Assembly: GCF_963506605.1 (NCBI RefSeq)
Contig: NC_083280.1
Span: forward strand, 42,284,001 to 42,348,000
Length of the DNA: 64,000 nt
Source of the DNA: Zootoca vivipara
Taxonomy: Eukaryota
Direction: 5' to 3'
A program made the position numbers and the translations under genes. Positions within the stretch are counted from its first letter, which is position 1. Every line of letters starts with the position of its first letter. Positions 1,201 to 59,918 of the stretch are shown here, one piece after another. Under the pieces are notes generated by a model that was not told the DNA's origin, searched no databases, and saw only the letters and a program-made list of their open reading frames with translations.

Positions 1201-2010
1201 GTGAGCCAGCTCTCCTGAGCAGCGTTTATGATGCCCAGCCTGCCAGGATCTCACTGAATGTCCCCTCTGACTTGCAGAGCCCCAGTTCCCACGTGGCACA
1301 TTCCATCTACCAGCTGCTGGATGGATTTATGGTGCTGGAGAAGAAGCTGAAAGACGGGCAGGAGATCAAGCCTCAGCTGCGCTCTCAGCCGGTTCTTGTG
1401 GAACTCCGGCATCGGATGGACAACTTTGTCAGGAGGTTGGGTGGGCAAGAGCCACAGGTGAGGTTTGGCTGATTTACACAGGAGCTGCCCAGGCACAAGG
1501 GTGCTGGAGTGAGCACCCTTTCTGAGAACACACTGCTAAGAGAGCCAGTGTGGTGTAGTGGTTAAGAGCGGTAGACTTAATCTGGTGAACCAGGTTCGTG
1601 TCTCCGCTCCTCCACATGCAGCTGCTGGTTGACCTTGGGCTAGTTGCACTTCTTTGAAGTCTCTCAGCCCCACTCACCTCACAGAGTGTTTGTTGTGGGG
1701 GAGGAAGGGAAAAGGAGATTGTTAGCCACTTTGAGACTCCTTTGGGAAGGGATAAAGCGGGATATCAAATCCAAACTCCTCCTCCGCCTCTTCTTCTTCT
1801 TCTTCTTCTTCTTCTTCTTCTTCTTCTTCTTCTTCTTCTTCTTCTTCTTCTTCTTCTTCGTGATGTAGTGTCTAGTGGGGCAGAGCTGGGCAGGCATGAA
1901 CAGGCCTGAGCTATGGGTGAGCTCCCATTTACAGGGGTAGGAAGGGCAATAGAACCGCTGGGTAAGAGCAGACCCTGCAAAGAGATGAAATGATGCTGGA
2001 CTTAGGAGCA

Positions 2011-2084
<74 letters not shown>

Positions 2085-5000
2085 GCAGAATACCTGGCTG
2101 GAATTCAAGAACAGAGCTTTCTCTCGGAACGAGACTGGGAGTTCCTGCGAGTGAGTTACTACTGGTTGGGCTGGGCTGGAGTGGGGGAGATTAGAAAACA
2201 GAGTTGGGATAAGAATTTGGGGGTAGCATCCTGGGGGCTGCTGAAGCTTAGGAAATCGGGTACCCTTCCCCAGCCATGCACTGGCGTAGCGATGCCCAAT
2301 GACCAGGGAGAGCTAGGTTTAGAGTCCCCACACAGCTGCAATCTCACTGGGTGGCCTTGGCCTAATCTGAGAATAAAATTGAAAGGTGATGGTTCAGCCA
2401 TGACGAAAGGCAGGATGCAAATGTAGTAGTGATGAACAGAATGAATGGAGGTCTATGAAGCTTAAGGGCCCTTTGTCCTGTGAGTTTTGTGGTCCTGGGA
2501 CAAGGAAGCAGCTGGCTGGACCTGTTGTGAGGAAAGGAGAATGTTCCTGGTATTGCTGGATCTGAGCAGGGAACAGACTCCTTTGCTGTCAAATTTTGAT
2601 TTGTGGTGTGTGTGTGTGTGTGCGTGCGCCGCAGCAATTCTCTTTCAACAGCTATGAGACATGGTTGCAGACAAATCTGGAAGAGCAAAAAATATGAGGT
2701 AAAACTGGGAACCAATTTACAGAACTAGCCCATTGTATAGCCCTCCTGGGACAGTACCACGTACGAATGTGTGTTTGAAAGCTCCCCTGTGTGTACACAA
2801 TCAAACAAAGCTTCCTCTGCACATAGCGAAGAGCACATGAGGGAGAAGGCTTGGCTTCAAACCCTCCTCCTCCTTCCAGACATGCAGTAGACAACCATGT
2901 GCTGAGTTTGAACTTTGGCAGGGGCCAAAGGAGGCCTGGCTGGTAGCTGACGGGGGAAGATTTGGCGTGCATTTGGGAAAGGGGCTTGAGGGACAGGGGA
3001 AGAGAAAAAGATTCCGATTGAATAGAGTGGGGGAGAAAAGGACCAGTCTGGTCTTTTCACCTATTGATTTGTACTTGGGACACTAATGGAGTTACCAGTT
3101 GAATGGATTTAACAGTTCTTGCAGCTTGGGGACAATGTTAACAATACCAAGTTAACCTCTATAAGTTAACCAAGATGATGTATTGACAGAGACTGTGTAC
3201 AAATGAAACACGGTTTGAACTCTGGGGCCATTCCTACTGCTTTCTGCTTAAAATAATCCATTTTCTCTGCGACTGCTGCAGATATTCCCTTTAGACAGGT
3301 GTTTTGTGGCGGGTGTGTCCTGCAACATGTTCTTGACAGTAGTCTTAGTGTACTAGTGGTGAGTTTGTTCTCCAATGCTTCCCTAATGCTACAACGTTAT
3401 TGCTGTCCAGAGCAGCTGTAGCACAACAAGGGGGGGGGGGGTAACCGAACTCCAGAACATCTGTGGTATGAAATGTTGCAGGATTTCAGCAAGAATCTGT
3501 GGAATCTGCGCTGATTGGAAATGAAGCTATGTGACACACACACACCAATAGCACCATGTGCACAAATAATCATGAACGCACAAAAAAAGGGACATTGGGG
3601 AGGGATCCTGAATGCCCTTCGTAGGTGACAAAATTCAGATAATGCTTCTGGCTTGCCTGGATGGGGGACAGAGGTGGGCGTGAAAACTAGTGTTTCTGTA
3701 CAGAGGTAAATTTTGCATTTGTTGCTCTGACCTCTTTTGCCTCTGGCCCCACCGTCGCTCCTGCCATGTGGCCCCTGGGAAGTTGCCCAGAAGGGAATGT
3801 GGCCCTCAATCTGAAACAAGTCCCACCGCTGCTTCATCGGCACACTGATCTCTCTTTGGCGCAGGCTTCTGCAGGCCTTCTGCCGCATCCGGAGGCAGCT
3901 GTGTGCCGTGTATCGGCAGCTCTTTCTCGGATCCTCTGGGACGCAGGGCCTGCCGCAGAACTTGCTGGACCAGGTGCAGCAGCTGACGCGGTGAGTGGGA
4001 TGGAGCGCAATGGCAAAACCACACGGGAAAGGGTGGCGGTGGCAGATTTCAACTTGTACCCATTTGAGAGTTTGCACCTCATGCTGGATATCCCGTAAGG
4101 CAGTGTTGGTCAGTTGTTGGTGGACTACAGCTCCCATCATCCTTGGCCAGCTTAGCCATGGATGGTGGGAGTTGTAGTCCAAGAACATTTGGGGACCCAA
4201 CATTGAGGAACGCTGCCGGAAGGTCACCCTGAAGTTCCCTTGTGCACAGCTCTCTTCCCCTCTTATATCTGTTCAGTGCTGTCCAGGAGAAGCTGGTACA
4301 CCCCAGTCACGCTCCACTCCTTGTGGCGGCTGCTGAGAGGCTTCTCGGACCCTCCACCTGAATGCCCATCTCTTCCTACCCCTATGCACTTTCAGGGCTA
4401 GTGCCTGCTTCTCCCCATATAGTGGCCAACAAAGGAAGGAACACTGGGGAATTGAAAGGCTTGCTGTCTTTTCCCCCCCAAGGTGGGGCTGGAAACTCCG
4501 GCTCCGAAACCAAGCACCACTTGCTGCGAGGGCAGGAAGGCAATATGTGCACCGAGCTCTTGGCCCTTGTAGCTTATTCCTGCTTCCTTTTTGTTGGCAG
4601 GGACAAGCTGCAAGACTGGAGAGATTTCCTGCTGGTGAAGAGCAAGCGCAATGTTACCATAGTGTCATATCCTTCCATGCTTTTCCCCGGTCCCATTCAC
4701 TTCTTTTCTCCCAGAGGACTTTTGAGCATCCCCAACCAATACCAGGAGGTGTTGCTTAGCTGGTAGAGCCTGAGACGCTTAATCTCAGGGTCATAGGTTT
4801 GAGCAGCACCAAAAAAATTTTTTGTAGGGGGTTGGACTAGATGACCCCTCCACGATCCCATCCGATTCTAGGATTCTGTTTCTTGGTCACAGAGCTGGAG
4901 TGGGTGAATGTTGAGGTTAGTTCTCTTTCATGGGTTCTACAGGTGCTGGGAACAGGCTGGCAAAAGTTCTCAGGTTGTACCAGGAAAGTACACTGTCCTT

Positions 5001-6888
5001 GGACAAACGTTAAGATCTGGGGGAAGGAGGGACGTTGATAGATTTCCATCACTCACTTGAGTCAAGAACCCCATCCCTGCATTATCCAAGTTCCTTGGGA
5101 GGTTTTTGTGGGGAGGATCCTAGTGGGGCAGGCACCCAAGTTGCGAGGGGGCAGCTGCTTTCTCCCCAGCCACAGGCCCTTAACTGGCTGCCATCCACAT
5201 ATCTGGAGGACTTCCCAGGGCTGGTGCACTTCATCCACGTGGACCGCACAGTGGGGCAGATGGTGGCTCCATCCCTTGGTGCCGCAGAGGACTCTGCTTC
5301 AGAGCTAGGCAAGGGGCCTTTGCCTGCCTTCATCAAGCAGAAGGTAAGTGCTCCCTAGCCTATGCAAGAGCCCCAGCTGCTGCTTCTTTCTTGCCTGCAA
5401 AGTTTTCGCTGCAGCGAGAGACAGGCGGTCTCCCAGTAACGTGAGCATGTGATGGGAGTTGGAGGAGAGACCAAGAATCTTGGAGTGGTGATTCAGGGCT
5501 CAGAAAGGGAGGTCTTGGGCTGCTGGGTGCGTGTTTCTCTTTGTCTTCCCTGTCTCTTCCTCTCCAGGTGTGGTCCTTGGTGGCGCTAGCGAGAAGCTAC
5601 TTGCAGAAGGGCTATACCACGGTGACAGTCCGGGACGGAGACTACTATTGCACCTACTTTCTTTGGTTTGAGAATGAGATGGTAGGTGCAGAAGCTTTGG
5701 GGGAGAGGGTGGGCGGGCTTGAAATGCAGAGATCTCCTGCAACTTCCTAAGCGCTTACTCTGGATGTAAGAATCCCATCATCAAATGGTCATTCAACTGC
5801 AGTCAGTCATCTTAACTTGTTCAGAGTTGACTTGAGGCTACAAATGATGCTTTCAGGAGGAAGGATAGGATATTGACATGGTGCATAAACAGTGTCCTCT
5901 GCTACGGTGTGGATAGTATGGGCTGGAGACATTTGCCTCTACATAGCCTAAGAAAGCCTGCAGTGGTCCCTAAGCCACTGTCCTGTCCCGTCCCTGACCT
6001 CTCCTTTCTGCCGCCACGCCCCTGCAGGGTTACAGGCTGGAGGTTACGGAAGTGCCGGTGCTTTCGGATGATTCGGCCCCCATTGGGACATTGGCCGGCG
6101 ACTATTACAGGTGAGCAAGGATTCCAGTGCCCCAGATACTATTGGTTATATGAGGGGCTTGGGGGGAGAGATCCAGCCAGAAGATCCAGGTTGGCTGGAG
6201 GAGAAGGGCAATCCTTTTACAGCTTGACCATTACCCAGCCTCTTCCTCATCCTGGCACCTGTACACAGTTCTACAGAGTGCTGCCTACAACCTCATGGGA
6301 ATTTCTATAGCCTATAGTATAGTACAGTATATTTTTATGAACCGTCTTATTTCTGTGTCTGTAAGTTGTTTTTAATTGTTTTTAATGTTCTAACTTGCCC
6401 TGGGACGGGATAGAGTGGGTAATATTATTTATCATCATCATCCCATGTTTTGGGATTTCCAAACTGGCAGTGGAAAACCTGTGACTCTTCAGATGATGTT
6501 GGCACTACAAATCCCATCATCCCTTGACCAGGGAGGAGGAACACAAGCCTTCAACTTGCCTTGGATTACATGGGTGGGCTTTAGCCATTTCCCCCTCTCT
6601 AGTTTAGTGGTCTCTAGTTTAGTGGTGCATCCTCTGCTGACTGGGCTAGGAAAGCTTTTGGAATCCTCCTTGTCCCAGCAGCCCTGCCTCTTCCCCATTT
6701 CCTGACCACCGTCTCACCCCTTCAGGAAGCTGCTCCGTTACTGCAGCAGGACCCATGCGAACGAAGTGGTGAAGTGCTATGAACTCCTCACCATCCACCT
6801 GGGCGTTGTGCCAACTGAGTTTGTGATCCAGCAGGCGTGTGACTTGGCCCGGCGACTTTGGGAGCCAACCCGCATCCCCTTGCTCTAG
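1033..6888 (+). CDS. HPS1: HPS1 (BLOC-3 subunit), 3' part of gene, ~370 aa; exons 1033-1200, 1278-1457, 2083(or 2089)-2150, 3865-3990, 4601-4666, 5199-5343, 5568-5681, 6028-6110, 6726-6888
   Basis: Spliced translation ([86 protein letters not shown]) matches the recalled human HPS1 C-terminal half; phases consistent; synteny with PYROXD2 and LOXL4. The 5' exons lie outside the window. Confidence 0.97.
1278..1457 (+). CDS. HPS1: HPS1 exon (exon 13 equivalent)
   Basis: ttgcAG|AGCCCC..CCACAG|GTgagg; SPSSHV..GGQEPQ. Confidence 0.95.
1540..1859 (+). mobile_element. Squam3-type tRNA-derived SINE with (TTC)n tail
   Basis: tRNA-like head (GTGGTGTAGTGGTT..GGTTCG), MIR/CORE-like body (TGACCTTGGGC..CTCAGCCCCACTCACCTCACAG), (TTC)n tail ~1790-1859. 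Confidence 0.85.
2013..2080 (+). repeat. (TC)34 microsatellite serving as polypyrimidine tract
   Basis: Perfect dinucleotide run directly before the acceptor AG at 2081-2082. Confidence 0.97.
2083..2150 (+). CDS. HPS1: HPS1 exon (exon 14 equivalent; alternative in-frame start at 2089)
   Basis: (TC)n AG|TTGCAG|AATACCTGG..TGCGA|GTgagt; (LQ)[20 protein letters not shown]. Confidence 0.9.
3865..3990 (+). CDS. HPS1: HPS1 exon (exon 15 equivalent)
   Basis: gcgcAG|GCTTCTG..ACGCG|GTgagt; [24 protein letters not shown]. Confidence 0.93.
4101..4215. mobile_element. Palindromic hAT MITE (older copy)
   Basis: CAG..CTG termini, internal inverted repeat GGACTACAGCTCCCA/TGGGAGTTGTAGTCC, near-perfect 8-bp TSD CCGTAAGG/CCGGAAGG. 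Confidence 0.75.
4601..4666 (+). CDS. HPS1: HPS1 exon (exon 16 equivalent), ends at a U12 AT donor
   Basis: ggcAG|GGACAAG..GTGTC|ATATCCTT; [21 protein letters not shown]. Confidence 0.93.
4667..5198 (+). other. HPS1: U12-type (minor spliceosome) AT-AC intron of HPS1
   Basis: 5' site ATATCCTT at 4667, branch site CCCTTAAC 5177-5184, 3' end CCAC at 5198; joining gives the conserved ..IVS-YLEDFPG; same position as the known human HPS1 intron 16 AT-AC intron. Confidence 0.95.
4752..4877 (+). mobile_element. tRNA-Lys/CR1-tail SINE, degenerate, inside the U12 intron
   Basis: TGGTAGAGCC..CTTAATCTCAGGGTC head and GGGGTTGGACTAGATGACC..ATTCT tail. Confidence 0.8.
5199..5343 (+). CDS. HPS1: HPS1 exon (exon 17 equivalent)
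   Basis: ccAC|ATATCTG..CAGAAG|GTaagt; [31 protein letters not shown]. Confidence 0.95.
5568..5681 (+). CDS. HPS1: HPS1 exon (exon 18 equivalent)
   Basis: ctccAG|GTGTGG..GAGATG|GTaggt; [22 protein letters not shown]. Confidence 0.95.
6028..6110 (+). CDS. HPS1: HPS1 exon (exon 19 equivalent)
   Basis: ctgcAG|GGTTAC..TACAG|GTgagc; [27 protein letters not shown]. Confidence 0.95.
6726..6888 (+). CDS. HPS1: HPS1 last coding exon
   Basis: ttcAG|GAAGCTG..CTC TAG; [12 protein letters not shown]. Confidence 0.95.
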
Positions 6889-10810: not shown

Positions 10811-13800
10811 ATGCCCAGGTTGGTCTAGCAGGTGGCCTCGTGCTAATGAATGCTTCCCACGAGGAAGAGGAAGGCAAACTTTCCTGCAGGAGAAGTGGGG
10901 CGAGTAAGTGGCCAAAGCATGGTCTTCGGCTGGAAAAGAGCAGAAGTTTGGTTTTGAAAGACGATTGGCCAAATATATGGAGGAAAAGACTTATTCGAAG
11001 CATCTAGCTATGATTATGCTCATCCTCCACAGTCTGCTTCTGAATACCAGTTGCAGGAAACCTGTGATTGGATGGGCCACTGACCCGATGCCCCAGGGCT
11101 CTTATTATATTCTTTCTTTAAAAAGTGCCTTTATATCCCACCTTTTTCTCCAAGGAGCTCAAGGTGGCATACATGGTTCTCCCCATCCACAACAACCCTG
11201 GGAGGTAGGATAGGCTGAGAGGCAGTGAGCGACCCAAGGTGAGCTTCATGGCCGCCAAGTGGGGATTTGAACCTTGGTGCCTTAGGTCTGGGTCCAACAG
11301 GACATACTGGCTTACTGGGTTGGTGGTGCTATGCAAAGGGAGGACGCTTTAAACTGGAGGAAGGGTGGCTGGGATTGCCCATTTATTTGAGAGAAAGCTC
11401 CATTGAACTCATCGGGGTTGACTTCTGAGTAAACATGCTTCACTTCAGACTGTGGGGCACAGTTTTGGAAAAGAACAACTTTAAAGAAGCCTTTTTAAAA
11501 AAGTGCATTGTGGCTACGTGAATTGTGGGAGGAGGAGGTGGCCCAAATCAAAGCTGCTCCTCTTGTCTCTTTGCAGGACACAATGGACTGGTGGCTGTGA
11601 GTACTGAGAACTCCTGAGGGGACATGGCATCAGGCCTTTGGGCCCTCTGGAAAGAGATTGGCTCAGAGGGAGGGGGCTGCTGGTCCCTACCTGACTTGTC
11701 ATCTGGGGAAGACTATTTTCTTGTCTGGTGATTAAGTTCAGCAAAAGGAATGGGGTAAGCAGCTGGGACTTCTTCATGGCTAAGAGGATGCTCCTTGCAT
11801 CTTCAGGCTGCCTACCTGCAGAAAGGTGGTTTGAAGACAGCTGTGCTGGAGAGAAGACACCTCGTGGGGGGTGCAGCAGTCACTGAGGAGATTATCCCAG
11901 GTAAGAGCTGTGCTTCCCAGGTGCTGCCCTCCTGCTTCTCCAGGCAGCATCCTATCGCTGCTGCTCCTCAATGCACCTGACATGTACTGTTCTACAGGGT
12001 TTCGCTTCTCCAGAGCCTCCTACCTGCTCAGTCTGTTGAGACCCCAGATTTACTCAGAGCTGGAGTTAAAGGTATGGACTGTTTGCTTGTGCTGGTGGGG
12101 CAGGGTGAGCAGTGACAGTGGGAATTGCTGGGTTCCTGCCTGGTTTCTAGCCATTTCTGCTTGTCATTTTTTGGGCACCTCTGAAGCCAAACCCCTGCCA
12201 AATTCTCTTCCCTTCCTTCCAAAAATAAAAAAGTTCTGATTTGCTGAACAGACCTTGTATCTTCCCAATTATCCCAAGTTACCGTGTAACAAAGACCAGG
12301 GCAGTCTCTTTTCACTCTGCTTTTTTCTTCATTTTAATCTTTAGCCAGCAATTTTAATCCAGGAAGTCAGTCATAGTTCTACCATAGGCCCAGCCCTGTA
12401 GAATCCTCTGCCAGCAGAAATGCAGCAGGCCCCTTCTGTTTCAGCCTCTAAACTCGTACTGAAAATTACTCTATTCTGCTAGGCTTATGTAGACAATTAA
12501 AAATACATCTTTCCATAATAATTAATTCGATGATCTCTGGTTTTAAATTTTGTACGTGTTGTTATATATCGATACTGTGGCAAACCACTTTGGTATTTTA
12601 ATGATATAGTGGTATCTTTTAATAATTTTGTTTTTTTAAATTGATTAATTTTTTAAGTATTAACAAATAACAACAAAAACAATTCCAAATCCAAATATTG
12701 AGATTACTCTGAACCTCCTGACTTCCCCCCATCCCTTCCATGGGTCCTGATGATCATATTTACAACTGCATATCAATATCTATCCAAAAAAATTTCCTTC
12801 TAAATTATCCATACTTTCTGTTACTTTACAAGTGTGATTCAAATCCTGCTAATCTTTTAACTTGCTTACAGTGGTCTTGTAAATAAATTATAAACTTTTC
12901 CCATTCTTTTTTTAAAGCTCTCGTCTTCTTGATTTCTGAGCTTCCCAGTTAATTTTGCCATTTCGGCATAGTCCATCAACTTGGTTTGCCATGCTTCTTT
13001 GGTCAGGGTTGTCTCTGACATCTTTTAATAAATTAATATGCTTGGATGACTAAGCTACCAGGTTCCTACACATTCTGACTGGAGTACCCCTGCCACCCAA
13101 GTTGTACAGTCTGAAATAGCCATTCTCCATCCCTCTGTCTTGGTACCCCGTTTGTCACTGAGGTAGATAGAAACTTATAATCTAAAGGCTGTCAGTTACT
13201 AGGTTTAGGCTGAGAAGGTGATGTTTTTTATTCATTTAAGTTGGGAGATGACATGCAGTGCAAGCCTATCCATGTTTGTTCAGAAGTGAGTCCCACTATA
13301 TTCAGTGCTCACTTCTAGTTGGGTAGGTGCATGTGGGACTGCAGCCTTGGTTGGTGGATGACACAGTTCATAAAATTCTGAATGATATGACCAATGGGCA
13401 CAAATTCTAAGGCCAGTGTTCATAACATGGTCTTGCTTGAGGCCCGTAGGCCTGTGATAGTGAAACCTCCTAAAATCTGAGGACCCAGCGGTTTGTCTCA
13501 CCTCATGTGTGTGATAATTCAGCATGTTCTGTGCATTGCTGCCTTCTGTCTTCCAGAGACATGGTTTAAAAGTGCTTCCACGTGACCCTTATTCCTACAC
13601 ACCGCTACTGGAGGATGGTCGGGCCGGAAAAGCCCCCCGCTCACTGCTGCTGGGGAACAACATGGCTGACACACAGAGCCAGATTGCTCAGTTCTCTGTA
13701 AAGGATGCCCAGGTATTGTGGGGAAAACTTCCTCAGGCATGGAGGGGCAAGAAGCAGGCCCAGTCCAAGACATTTTGTTGCTGGAGGGGGGAATGGTCAA

Positions 13801-16800: not shown

Positions 16801-19800
16801 TGAAGGTGGGCAACACTCAACACAAGCAGAGATGAGTTATTCCATACTTAAGAACTTTGTGGGCCAGGTTCAACTAACTAGTTGCACTAGCAGAAGGCAG
16901 CACAATGAGTCCCGCCAGCACAATGGGACTCCCCACCTTCTCAGTGCTGTTGTGCCCAGGTCTTGCTTGTAGGATTCCCAAAGGCATTGGCGATGCTGGA
17001 CTAGAGGGGCCAGTGGTCTGGTCTAGCAGGTGCTTCTTGCACTGTTACATTATGTCACTTCCCTGCCCCCCCCACTTCCCATCAGCTCTGGGTGATCAGG
17101 AGAACTCCCCCCCAAGGAGGAGAGAGGAGATTGTTCCCATCAGGCAAGCAGAAATGCTTGCGCCGACAGAGCGATCTCCTTAGCGCTGCTTTGAATTCCG
17201 CCCCATGCTTTTAATTTTTTTGTTGCTCCTTTGGGACTGAAAATGTAGGGCATTAAATATTGTAAAAAAGAAAGCCATTAATGATAACAACGTGCTCGAA
17301 GGGGAAAGTGCCGTGCATTGTAACAGAGTCCTGCTTAGATGAATGCAAGCAGGAGGTAAAGAAAGCTGAGATGGCGCCAAGCCTGCCTGGCCAGCTTCTG
17401 CCGGGGAGATGCTGTGTCTTTTGCCATGCTTTGGGAGCTCTGAGCCCCGCCCGTGGCAGCCCCTAACTCTTGGTGTTTCTCGTAGGTATGTGCTGCTGCA
17501 CCATGTGATGGGTGAGCTGGAGGGGCGCCAGGGGGCCTGGGGCTACGTGGCTGGGGGCATGGGAGCGCTTTCCCAGGCCCTGGCCAATGCTGCAACTGCA
17601 CTCGGGGCTCAGATCTTCACGGACAAGGTGGGTGGATCCAATGAAGGGCAGGCAGTGCAGTGCGAGGGATGCTGATACAGTGTGATGGCATAGGGCAGGC
17701 TTCCTCAACCTTGGCCCTCCAGATGTTTTGAGACTACAGTTCCCATCATCCCTGACCACTGGTCCTGCTAGCTAGGGATCATGGGAGTTGTAGGCCAAAA
17801 GCATCTGGAGGGTCAAGGTTGAGGAAGCGTGGCATAGGGGAAAGAAGTTATCCTGGGACAATTCCCAGAAGGGTAGCTGTGTTCATCTGTGTGGCAGCAA
17901 AAACAACCAAGAGTCTTGTAGCACCTTAAAGATGAACAAGTTTGGCAAAGGCTTTTCTGGACCAGAGTCCACTTTATCAGGTACACAAAGCCTAATCCTC
18001 AGTTGCAACGACATACATATTTACCAATGAAGGCGAGAGCCTTGAAAGCAGTGAGGCCAGAGGGAAATTAAAAGCAGAAAAAGTGCAGGCAGAAGCAATG
18101 CAATTATAGCCAGAATGCACACAGAGTCAGTGCAGTGCCCGTTTGCAACTGCAGTGAGAGGTGACAAAACTCGGCAACGCTGAGTTAATTAACATCTGTA
18201 GCGGGACAGGAAATCATTGTCTCTATTCAGACCCAAATGGGATACAGGCAAACCTCTCGGTGAATTCTGCTTCAGCAGACTCTGGTCCACAAAATGCCCT
18301 GGTGATTATCCTGGAGCAGTGAATGCAATCACTTGGTGCCAATGGGATGCCATGTTTGGCATGCACCAGAAGACAGAGGCAAAGTGACACCCTCCAAAAT
18401 GACAGTGATGTTGGCATCCCTGGAGATTTTTGTGGAGAGGATGAGAAGCTGAAACTGGTGTCCTTCCTACCCCTGCTGGTATCCTGTTGATATGGGGCAA
18501 GTGGCTTTCTCCAGGGACGTGTTTATACTCCCCTCTTCTCAACCCTGCAGACTGTTGCCCAGATTCTTCTGAGCTCAGATGGGAAGGTGCAAGGTGTTTG
18601 CCTCCAGGACGGAACAGAAGTGAAGAGCCGCCTTGTCCTGTCAAATGCATCTCCGCAGCTCACCTTTCTGGAATTGACCCCTCAGGTGAGTCCTCCTCCT
18701 TGGTATAGCATGGGAAGGCCTTGGGGTGTGTGTGTGTGGATTCTCTAGACTTTTCCACTATCCTTGCTTTTTCCTATCAAGCAGCAGGATGCCCAGAGCT
18801 TGCAAAGGATGTCAGGTAGGTCTATTTGCACTCTGGTCCTTGAGGGACAATACCGGTTTATTACAGATACCCTAGAAGAGTGGGGAGCAGAGGAGGCTAG
18901 AGACACCCCCTTTAAGAATTGCCAGTGGGCTGAGCCCTCACGTAGGAATGACTGAGCAAAATATACTGCTGTTCTGGTCCAGGCTGACTGAGAAAGGTGT
19001 GAGAGAGATGTAGCCCAGTTTCTACAACCCAGCAGCCAGTTGCCCCGTCTTGCTTTCTGTACCTGCAAACCAGAGTGTTGCTGTGAAGGGAGGAACTGAG
19101 CTGACTAGAGACTGAATGCATGGAGAGAGAGGGAGGCAGAGTTGAGGATAAGAGTGAAGAAGCTGAGTCCCAAATAGTGTGCTTCTGGTTTCGCCTACTC
19201 TTCCATAATATTCATGAACTATGTGTTTTCAGTACAGCTGGGAAACCCTCTCAGATTTAATGGTTAATCTAATATTGGACCACTGTGAGCCACCCTACCT
19301 TAAAAACACTTCTTTGGTCTGTTGTGTTCGGGGAGAAGGTACTGTCTGGGTGTGCTGCCTTCATAGGTAGATTATTAGCTTTTAATGTTTGATGTTTTGG
19401 TGTGCTCCTTTATACTTCATTGGAAGCCGCCCATAGTGGCTGGGGCAACCCAGTCAGATAGGAGGGGTACAAGAAATGTATTATTATTATTATTATTATT
19501 ATTGGTGGACTTAGGGTAAAAGAGTATTGGAAAATGATACATAATGAATTGAAAAAAATGTTCAAAAGTACTTTTTTTAAAAAAAACCAAAACACCCAGA
19601 GTCTTTTATGTTGGGGATAATTCAGACTGAAATTCCCAGGTGTCAAAAAAGGTTATTTATGTCTGCGACTACTGCGGCCCATGTTTTGTTAGCCAAAAAA
19701 TGGAAAATGAGTGAGGTCCCAACCAAAGAAGAAGGGCAACTTAAATTGACAGAATATGTGCAGCTTGCAGACTTAACATATAGAATAAGAGAACGAATAA

Positions 19801-36715: not shown

Positions 36716-37988
36716 CTCTGGCTCCACCTACTGTTGGTCTCATGACACCTGCTCCACCAATCGCAATGGGCACTGTACCAGCCACCGCAGCCTTTCTGGA
36801 CATAGTGGAAGAGGGCAGAACTAACCCTGTTGCTAAGGAATTACATGCTGTGGATGGGGTATCCTTTAAAAAAAAAATGCACCAGAGAAGTAGAATTCTG
36901 AATCTCCAGTGGAACAATAACAGCAAGAAAAACGGGAAGAAAGGAGTTTACTATATTGGCACAGCATTCACAATGTCTTGGGGACCATTTTCTCTCTCTC
37001 CCCGACCCCAACAACAAGCTGTTTCAAAGATGGGAAATGAACCTAGCTTGGGGAGAAGGCCTGGGGGAAAGGTTACAAAAGAAATACTGCTGGATTGAAC
37101 CTATTGATTCTTGCCAATGCCTCCACATTATAATTAGACAACAAACACATTTGCTGAAGTAATGCACAGTTCCTCCCTGTGGTGGATAATGTGAAAAATA
37201 AGTATGTTTAAGATTAGTCACAAAGCAAACATTCCTCACAAGCAATGGAATTATTCCTTGAATGAGCATCATTGCAGGTTTTTTTTGTCTGCATAAATGC
37301 CATTGGATCTCTCAGTTCTACAATTGGGCTCATCTTCTATCAGGTCTTCCTGGAAAAATGAAACAGAATCATCACCTCGGTTCCTCTTTTTCCTCTAATC
37401 AGCCTGAATGCACCTGTGATTTTCTTGACTATCCAAAAAGGAGAGGCGTATAGTCTGTGTACTGATGAATTTCTCTTGGTAACACCAGTTCTGTTATTAT
37501 AGAGGAAGTTCATGGGAGAATTACATTTTGCAATCAAAGGGCATATCTAGACTGTTGCTATTTTGGGGTGGGATTCCGTCACACACCTGCAAATTCAGGC
37601 TGTACAATTAAAGTTGATTGGGAGGTCTTGTGTGACAAACCCACTTCCTCAAACAGTCAAACTTTTTGTGATAAAGGGAAGTGCTAGGAAATACTCTGGA
37701 AAGTGTGGAATAACACTTGCTTTGATGCAGCAGCATCTAACCGCCCTGAAAACAAATAAGAGTGAATGCTCATTAAATAGCTAATACTGTCTAATAATAT
37801 CCCCACAAACAAATCAGGATGGTAGGGTTTTTTTTTTAAAGGTCTGAAAGTGCCCTTAGAAGATTCTTGGTCCTGCGATCTTTTGAAGGGAAGGGTTGTG
37901 TAAATAACCAGCAGCAAGTGTGAATTTGGAGATTTGCAGTTTTGTTGTGCAGACAACTGTTGTAGGTGAGAATAATTATGCAGATGAG

Positions 37989-38316
37989 TTACAGGTAGGT
38001 AGCCGTGTTGGTCTGAGTTGAAACAAAATAAAAAAATTCCTTCAGTAGCACCTTAAAGACCAACTAAGTTTTTATTTTGGTATGAGCTTTCGTGTGCATG
38101 CACACTTCGTCAGATACACTGAAACAGAAGTAGCCAGACCCTTATGTATATTCAGAGGGTGGGGTGTGTGTGTGTGATGGGCTGATAGGAGTGGTAAACC
38201 TGTTGATGACTGTTAACGACTGTTAATGACTTCAATTGGTTTTGCGGGGGGGGGGTGCTAAGGAAAGCTTGATCATGTGTAATGAGATAAGAATCCTTTG
38301 TCTTTGTTCATTCCAG
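37989..38316 (-). mobile_element. Penelope-like retroelement, 5'-truncated young insertion
   Basis: Minus strand ORF end GMNKDKGFLSHYT*; pLTR-like 3' region with hammerhead; perfect 12-bp TSD TATGCAGATGAG (37977-37988, 38317-38328). Confidence 0.88.
38080..38117 (-). ncRNA. Minimal type I hammerhead ribozyme motif
   Basis: GUAU CUGACGA A GUGUGCAUGCACAC GAAA GC UC^AUAC: complete catalytic core, stems I and II, palindromic AGCU helix III. Confidence 0.82.
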
Positions 38317-38733
38317 TATGCAGATGAGGACACTGTGTTGAGATGTAATTTGTTGCCGACCCTACCATTAGGCAGAGTCAGGCAGATGCTCAGGAGTGTG
38401 GAACAGACAGAGGTGTGCAGAAGACCACATGACCAGCCCTGCACCCCACCCTCAAGTTAGCCTGGTACCCTCAGATTCAGTTGAGGGCATTGCCATATTG
38501 CCAGTGTGGAAGAGTCAACTCCCAATGTAGCTGGTTCTCCATACAAGGAGAATCTTGTCTTTCCTCAGGCAGGAGAATGTCTTGGGCAGGCTTTGATGTA
38601 AACTGACTCCACATCCAAGGCCTGAGCATTTGAACCCTGCATTTCATTCTTTTCACAGCCTTGGCTTTCTTGTGATTAGACAGGCTCTCGTATGAAAGGG
38701 AGCTGAGAGGCAAAGATCCTCTTCCTTTGTTGG

Positions 38734-39779: not shown

Positions 39780-40191
39780 AGGTGGAGAAAGCAGCGGCAG
39801 GCTGCGGCCACCCTATTCGTGGGCTCTTTCTGGAGGCTCCCCCTCCCTCTTGAGCATCCAGGCAGTCGAGGCTCCGGCCTGCCCTGCCCCTCCTCGGATC
39901 TGTCCGAGAGCCAGAGGGGGCGGCCGCCACGATAAAAAGGCTGGACGGGACGGGCTGCGGACGGAGCGGACGAGAGGCGGCAGGCTTGGCTCACCTCTCG
40001 CTCTCTGCCCTGCGTGGACATCCTGGTCGGGATCGACGCCTTCTGAGCGCCCGCAGCTCCTGCGCTTCTCCTCTCCGGCTCTGTCGCTCGTGGCCGCCTG
40101 CATCGCTCACTTGTTGCCTGAAGCCCCGTCTCTCCTTCTCCATCCCTGGCAGACCTTTCCTGTTCCCGGACTGGCTGAGCCGCGCGCGCAC
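39780..40191 (+). promoter_or_regulatory. LOXL4: LOXL4 CpG-island promoter and non-coding exon 1 (donor after 40191)
   Basis: CpG-dense; TATA-like GATAAAAAGG 39931-39940; ATG-free leader ending CAC|GTGAGT; the next exon (acceptor ~41432) carries the ATG. Confidence 0.75.
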
Positions 40192-41458
40192 GTGAGTATT
40201 GAGACGGAAAGTCTCTCTAGGTTTCTGGGGGAAACTTTATTATTTTGGGGTGGGGTGGGGGAGAGGGGGTGTCCCCCTAACTCTTCTCCAAAGAAATTGG
40301 GCGCGTTAGTTATTTTGCAAGACAGAACCCCCCCCCAAAAAAAACCAGGTGGTAGAAAGAAATGGAACATGGATCCCAACAGCAAGTGCATTTTGTTGAT
40401 TTCGAGAGGGGGTGTGTATTGGGAAAATAGAGATAAAAGGGGTGGGTGTCCAGCAATGTTTCCCTTTCTCTCCCATGAGGGGGTTGAACTAGATGACCCT
40501 TGGGGTCCCTTCCGATTCTATGAGCTCTGCATGCTCAGGTGAAAATACTGACACCCGTCCCCCTCCCCACCCACCCCAAAAAAAAACCACCCAAGGCAGC
40601 GTCTAAATAAAGGAAAAGCAGACAAACAAACATCTCAGCTCTCTGAATTGGAGGTAGTCAGCAGAAGATTATAAGTCACCATCCCGCGCGTGTGGGTGGC
40701 TGGAATGTTCTTGCCTCAACCTGTTCACATCTGTCTCTCCGTCCCTCCTTCCCTCCGCATCTGTCTGTCGGCCATCCATTCATCCTGGAGGAACGGGCTG
40801 TGCGTTTTTTGTTTTGTTTTAACCCTGTACACAGTATCAGTGTTAGGTGCTTCGCGCGGGATAACTATCATCATTTCCTGGTCCTGAAATTTTTGTTTTG
40901 GCTGTTTTCACACACACTTTCCCAAACGAGTGTTAGTTTTAAAATACTGTGTTACAAGCTACCTTGAAAGTCTCCAATGGAAAAGCAGGATATAAATGTT
41001 TTTTTAAAAAAAATCAGTCGCAGTAATTAACATTAGAAACCATTTAACCGCATAGTTTTATTATGTCTTCATTTGTCCCTAGCATGACAGTGCTCAGAAG
41101 ATGCCTGTTTTAATAGGACCTGTTTTAATAGGATGGGAAAAACTAACGTGATGACTCTGGACTCCCATCATCCCTGGCCATTGGCTATGCTGACCAGGGC
41201 TGATGGGAAATGGAGTCCAACAGCAACTGGAGGACCCTGCTGTAGTACAATATTCAGTCTTTTGGGAAGGACCAACCCTGTTAGACTTGCCCAGCGGCTT
41301 TCCTTCTCACCCTGTAACTTTGTGATGTCTGTAATGATACCTGATCAAACATTGTAGCAGGGAGTTCCACCGACCTTGTTCCTTACCCAGAAAACTAATG
41401 TTTCCATTAATCAGGTTTCTCATATCTCCCAGGTCTCACAGTCATTCTTGGACCCACG

Positions 41459-59823: not shown

Positions 59824-59918
59824 GAACAAAATAAAAAAAAAATCCTTCCAGTAGCACCTTAGAGACCAACTAAGTTTGTCATTGGTATGAGCTTTTGTGT
59901 GCATGCACACTTCTTCAA
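59824..59918 (-). mobile_element. Penelope pLTR fragment with inactivated hammerhead
   Basis: Close match to 38022-38113. Confidence 0.8.

Follow-up and report, generated by a model that had tools for sequence, protein, structure and literature searches.

Genomic Context

The analysed window, a stretch of 64,000 nucleotides from Zootoca vivipara (NC_083280.1, positions 42,284,001 to 42,348,000 of the forward strand), harbors on its plus strand the coding exons of a four-SRCR lysyl-oxidase-like gene, which profile matches place between 41459 and 51908. SRCR was matched eight times and Lysyl_oxidase four times among 115 plus-strand open reading frames (ORFs) scanned from 41411 on, out of 142 listed from 37000 on. 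A CpG island at about 39800-40300 (plus strand, GC 0.60-0.69, CpG observed/expected 0.73-0.79) is the likely promoter or first exon of this gene and is accompanied by a TATA-like hexamer at 39931. Further upstream, a weak HPS1-type match was obtained near 6885 in one of 144 scanned ORFs (of 175), and near 11867 there is a PYROXD2-like motif; the gene order would presumably be HPS1, PYROXD2, LOXL4. Based on this synteny with HPS1-like and PYROXD2-like neighbours, the LOXL gene is likely LOXL4.

About 1.8 kb from the TATA-like hexamer, a minimal hammerhead ribozyme motif is found on the minus strand at 38117-38080. Both its distance from the CpG promoter and its orientation, which would be sense for divergent transcription from this promoter, are as given in a preliminary description of the locus, which had proposed that such transcription reads the motif and that the resulting RNA is cut.

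A Truncated Penelope-Like Insertion

The motif is embedded in a 5'-truncated Penelope-like insertion of 328 bp (37989-38316, minus strand) that comprises the end of an ORF and one 3' pseudo-LTR (pLTR). It is flanked by a perfect 12-bp target-site duplication (TSD; left copy 37977-37988, right copy 38317-38328, plus strand), in whose left copy two element-adjacent bases also match the usual 3' end of the family. All that the window holds of the reverse transcriptase (RT)-endonuclease ORF are its last 13 codons and the stop (38314-38273, minus strand), which read GMNKDKGFLSHYT before the stop, with DK in place of the DI of relatives. These relatives share a common 3' end point, while their upstream extent is variable and runs into a GIY-YIG ORF. 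The previously noted 328-bp element with its Penelope ORF end and perfect TSD is confirmed. A fixed-length element of 328 bp was also considered and is ruled out by the variable upstream extension. In full-length copies, the repeats on both sides match the insertion, which places the motif in the pLTR of a Penelope-like element (PLE).

Seven nucleotides past the predicted cut lies an AATAAA hexamer (38071-38076, minus strand), a predicted poly(A) signal and the only canonical one in the 39950-37900 interval of that strand. A 39-nt stretch (38013-38051, minus strand), located between the ribozyme and the 3' end of the element, resembles a very short intron in its GT...polypyrimidine...AG layout; none of the RNA joints listed supports an intron at 38051-38013. 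In the DNA runs X6 and X8, no joint that skips the insertion, as expected for an empty site, was seen among the 15 of 35 joints listed. One X6 contig bridges the junction at 38316, and the remaining junction contigs come under the 31-letter rule. At 37824-37927, the contig depth of X8 is almost nil while X6 is covered, which could reflect allelic divergence, a deletion or a gap left by filtering.

Two further traces of Penelope sequence occur in the window. Another pLTR stub of this family (59827-59918, minus strand) is shorter than the first, has two changes in its core (C3 and G12) and is flanked by a short direct repeat that is probably a TSD. An older Penelope 3'-end fragment at 17872-17943 (minus strand) is 75% identical, and its core is not recognisable.

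The Hammerhead Motif

Read directly from the minus strand, the motif has every part of a minimal type I hammerhead. It consists of the 5' arm of stem I (GUAU, 38117-38114), the core CUGACGA (38113-38107), an extra A between positions 9 and 10.1 (38106), a self-complementary 14-mer forming stem II (38105-38092), GAA followed by the AGCU that replaces helix III (AGCU at 38088-38085), a C before the predicted cut (38084) and the 3' arm of stem I (AUAC, 38083-38080). Sequence and fold agree on a stem I of 4 bp and a stem II composed of a 5-bp hairpin with a 4-nt loop. All positions of the core C3 U4 G5 A6 N7 G8 A9 ... G12 A13 A14 A15.1 ... U16.1 H17 are present, as are the traits of minimal PLE hammerheads, i.e. 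a short helix I, an extra base before the G10.1-C11.1 pair, palindromic 15.2-16.2 and the lack of loop 3. The intact core, the GUAU/AUAC stem, the 14-nt palindrome and the palindromic AGCU had all been read correctly in the preliminary description, and its cleavage position between 38084 and 38083 agrees with the cut predicted here.

Since shuffled versions of the window are expected to yield 0.00 matches and a reversed-core control found 0 matches in the genome, the motif is a genuine minimal hammerhead sequence rather than a chance occurrence. General structure tools contribute little to this assignment: thermodynamic folding of the motif alone is not better than that of its shuffles (z -0.12), folding z-scores being uninformative for this motif, and the probability of stem I pairing is predicted at 0.003-0.40 across five context windows. 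The covariance-model check against Rfam gave no support either, as no hammerhead family such as RF00163 is present among the six matches at E<=10, nor is any hammerhead among ten matches to a tandem copy of the family. The motif is free of substitutions although its copy is 4% diverged, which is expected by chance in about 1 of 5 cases (0.96^37).

Copy Number and Age

A genome-wide search returned 19,097 occurrences of the exact 34-nt core, or about one per 75 kb, and 558 occurrences of a 54-nt string identical to the window copy. When G5, G12 and position 17 were left free, 22,084 otherwise perfect cores were obtained, 86% of which keep G5, G12 and C17; the window copy is thus not singled out by its intactness. 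An intact core is likewise retained in 25 of its 29 closest relatives.

Of 3759 candidates, 40 were scored, and the best match apart from the window copy itself is 92% identical to it. Divergence from the majority of 29 relatives is 4.0% for the window copy and 0.3-4.1% for the relatives themselves, a contrast that is exaggerated because the relatives were chosen as best matches and hence favour consensus-like copies. The window copy carries two short deletions and seven private substitutions (four of them within a CA run), the most among the 30 aligned copies. From five pLTRs at long-ORF loci, which are 0-1.5% apart, it is separated by 13.6-14.6%. Taken together, the divergence values suggest that the window copy is neither ancient nor among the newest. 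Its earlier characterization as a young insertion therefore holds insofar as it is not ancient, being 4% from its subfamily majority, and fails insofar as it is 14% from the youngest copies and has the most private substitutions.

Parent Elements and Their Biology

An open frame of 925 codons was found in five of 128 scored protein matches, i.e. at the five full-length loci L040-L044 (901 amino acids from the first Met in L040), and the pLTRs at these loci are near-identical in most cases. Judging from these intact ORFs and near-identical pLTRs, the family appears to have been recently active. One such ORF matches RVT_1 (E 2.4e-11) and GIY-YIG (E 4.6e-5) and would thus encode an RT with a C-terminal endonuclease; a CX5CXXC linker is present once in the protein of a full-length relative, between the two domains. 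In three of eight fetched loci, exact cores flank the ORF at a distance of 3002-3030 bp, giving partial tandems. Based on these flanking cores, the domain matches and the linker, the window copy can be assigned as a solo 3' pLTR of a Neptune-like element. The linker falls within the CX2-5CXXC pattern of Neptune elements given in the available part of PMC8557442 and is common to Nematis, so that the placement is one by linker motif.

TSDs of at least 11 bp occur in 14 of 30 loci, the window copy included, compared with 4 of 870 swapped controls. In an independent set, the first 30 loci of a 3'-end search with 3704 matches, they occur in 23 loci (8 of 870 swapped controls). A TSD of about 12 bp is therefore the norm for the family, bearing in mind that the measured lengths include a few bases common to the element end.

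The ends of 30 other insertions are informative with respect to both the cut and the start of the RNA. The sense arm spans an intact cut site in 29 of them, none begins within 3 nt of the cut, and the outermost 5' end lies at -34 to -38 from the cut in ten. An adjacent inverted arm is seen in 20, in most cases stopping about 35 nt before the long end. Many of these inverted-arm insertions are fold-back stubs, roughly 200-230 bp long. In these, the two arms join within the hammerhead and the outer 5' end lies at -34 to -38 from the cut. In the window copy, a TATA-like box (38150-38141, minus strand) is followed 30 nt later by an initiator (Inr)-like A at 38120, which is 3 nt before stem I and at -37 from the cut. 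As TATA/Inr-like promoter motifs in pLTRs are described for PLEs (PMC3846280 and PMC8557442, available parts) and the 5' ends of ten of the 30 insertions coincide with the Inr-like A, this pair is likely the core promoter of the element itself. The family RNA would then start near the equivalent of 38120, carry the hammerhead at its extreme 5' end and be copied uncut.

At one locus (L031, about 1800-4250, corresponding to G000:C1:2777.3-2779.7 kb), four exact cores with 598-bp spacing form a retrozyme-like array of near-identical units, each composed of pLTR, ORF start and ORF end. Dimers in cis are possible in principle in this array.

Can a Single Copy Cut?

According to the available text of PMC4209133, a single minimal hammerhead does not cleave and dimers show low cleavage, while roles other than cleavage are left open. 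The architecture of the window motif agrees with this dimer-dependent type, as noted in the preliminary description. A single copy is unable to form helix III. A two-strand double hammerhead is predicted at -11.1 kcal/mol and thus weaker than two monomers (-13.6 kcal/mol), whereas a dimer through the stem II palindrome reaches -30.6 kcal/mol and lacks helix III. The palindrome is hence predicted to favour a dead-end duplex over an active dimer, even though these energies take no account of tertiary contacts or protein. The suggestion that the palindromes enable pairing and cutting in trans thus finds no support, and the related notion that the stem II palindrome drives active dimers was dismissed on the grounds of predicted topology and energy.

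For a motif from an anole element, the part of PMC11167929 at hand reports cleavage only with the protein of the element, a response to core mutations, uncut RNA as the main template and RNA-seq ends that are not found at the cut.

RNA Evidence

Two RNA runs (X9 and X10) were consulted, of which about 6% each was read; the tissue is not given, and the species label is that of the DNA runs. Libraries of this type miss exosome-degraded RNA and true ends, and expression of LOXL4 in them is not established. Depth was 0 in all 23 unique-flank bins of both runs, which at about 6% of each is weak evidence with respect to unstable antisense RNA, and the downstream unique flank at 37200-37979 was likewise devoid of reads. 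Repeat-matching reads numbered 3802 in X9 and 1519 in X10, and most of them bear the letters and flanks of other copies. RNA of the Penelope-like family is thus abundant, so that partners in trans exist. No pile of read ends at the cut is listed in X9 or X10, a weak test in such libraries; the sole end pile listed comprises 11 molecules at 38129.

Function of the Window Copy

With a probability of roughly 0.88, the motif is a silent passenger in a truncated Penelope-like stub, which would cut only together with a second copy in a tandem transcript and which does not control LOXL4. Its origin may be pictured as follows. Full-length pLTR-ORF-pLTR elements would be transcribed from the TATA/Inr site shortly before the first hammerhead, and the GIY-YIG endonuclease would nick the target with a stagger of about 12 bp. 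Reverse transcription may then take uncut RNA as template, begin about 97 nt past the ribozyme and usually end early, so that most of the resulting 3' stubs keep an intact hammerhead. The ribozyme would have its job in the parent element: there, two copies at a distance of 3.0 kb could supply each other's helix III, probably with the help of the element's protein.

Among the alternatives, it is unlikely that the solo pLTR acts as a weak promoter which, from about 38120, generates a short minus-strand RNA with a 5' hammerhead and may influence nearby chromatin irrespective of cutting. The spacing of 30 nt between the TATA-like and Inr-like motifs, the clustering of insertion ends at the Inr-like site and the published pLTR promoter motifs (PMC3846280 and PMC8557442, as far as available) are compatible with this idea; against it stand the readless 37200-37979 flank in both RNA runs and the sharing of the motif by thousands of copies, among which nothing marks the one in the window.

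A broader proposal, to which we attach even less probability, views the roughly 19,000 intact hammerheads as a genome-wide set of conditional RNA cut sites that are silent alone and are switched on in nascent host RNAs when the protein and RNA of the element are expressed. That host introns, UTRs and upstream antisense RNAs such as that of LOXL4 are the places where this happens is just as doubtful. If solo copies were activated in host RNA in this manner, a retrotransposon would be placing cut sites throughout the transcriptome.

The regulatory link to LOXL4 that had been put forward for the locus is very improbable. It holds that divergent transcription from the LOXL4 promoter reads the copy in sense and that a cut in trans or with the aid of protein shortens the antisense RNA, thereby affecting LOXL4. 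The sense orientation and the distance of 1.8 kb would suit this, as PROMPTs span -2500 to -500 bp in the available part of PMC5960741, and the minus strand from the promoter to the motif is free of AATAAA and ATTAAA. The intact core, the abundance of family RNA and the protein-assisted cleavage of the anole element (PMC11167929, in part) are also in its favour. Yet, with 19,097 exact cores, a uniform model places a sense copy within 2 kb of 1.3% of promoters, i.e. about 260 of an assumed 20,000, so that the same arrangement is expected by chance at many genes and the location near the likely LOXL4 gene is probably fortuitous. Reads are moreover nil in the flanks in X9 and X10 (about 6% of each), and the double hammerhead in trans is predicted to be less stable than the free monomers. 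Finally, as AATAAA follows 7 nt past the cut, a divergent RNA would likely end at nearly the same place without the ribozyme. A limited literature search yielded no paper on a promoter-linked upstream antisense role for Penelope hammerheads.

It is equally hard to credit that the motif is non-catalytic even in the parent and persists as a 5' RNA structure or protein-binding site. This view is favoured by the lack of read ends piling up at the cut in family-wide RNA, by insertions that keep the site uncut and by the available text of PMC4209133, which leaves such roles open. Against it, the aligned core is constant between subfamilies 14% apart in their pLTRs, except for the free position 7, and the related motif of the anole cleaves in the presence of protein and responds to core mutations (PMC11167929, in part).

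As one stub among about 19,000, the locus itself is of little consequence. Its family, in turn, would be suited for tests of the function of Penelope hammerheads, in view of its intact ORFs, its regular TSDs of about 12 bp and its insertion ends, from which the start site can probably be read.

Comparison with Known Systems

The comparisons below refer to the available portions of the cited sources. Non-LTR retrozymes of animals (bioRxiv 10.64898/2026.07.22.740005) share with the present family an origin from pLTRs, and the four-unit 598-bp tandem with family cores elsewhere in the genome resembles them. Unlike these retrozymes, the window copy lacks a second consecutive unit: it is a single unit, and the window contains just one further core, at a distance of 21.8 kb and with two core changes.

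The lizard element Poseidon PAc from Anolis carolinensis (PMC11167929) likewise has a hammerhead in its pLTR and a 3' end at either of two points about 35 nt from each other (tail), as well as uncut RNA as template and RNA-seq ends that are absent at the cut. The PAc ORF starts at stem II, whereas here the first Met is found about 105 nt after the cut, and the CX5CXXC linker marks Neptune/Nematis rather than Poseidon (PMC8557442). With Neptune PLEs, the family has in common the RT, the Cys-rich linker and the C-terminal GIY-YIG domain, along with partial tandems, inverted 5'-truncated arms and a tail of 30-40 bp (PMC8557442). Its regular TSD of about 12 bp compares with 8-10 bp in rotifer PLE examples (PMC3846280).

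The closest agreement is with the minimal hammerheads described in PMC4209133, which include those already published from reptile PLEs, among them turtle and snakes. Shared features are the 4-bp helix I, the extra nucleotide between 9 and 10.1, the G10.1-C11.1 pair, the palindromic 15.2-16.2 without loop 3, the location in pLTRs and the predominance of solo copies genome-wide. Helix II has 5 bp and a 4-nt loop here versus 7-8 bp in the Schistosoma motif, and the 19,097 exact cores outnumber the about 9,000 motifs in Xenopus tropicalis, which were counted by another method (PMC4209133). The window motif is thus an ordinary addition to the published minimal hammerheads of PLEs.
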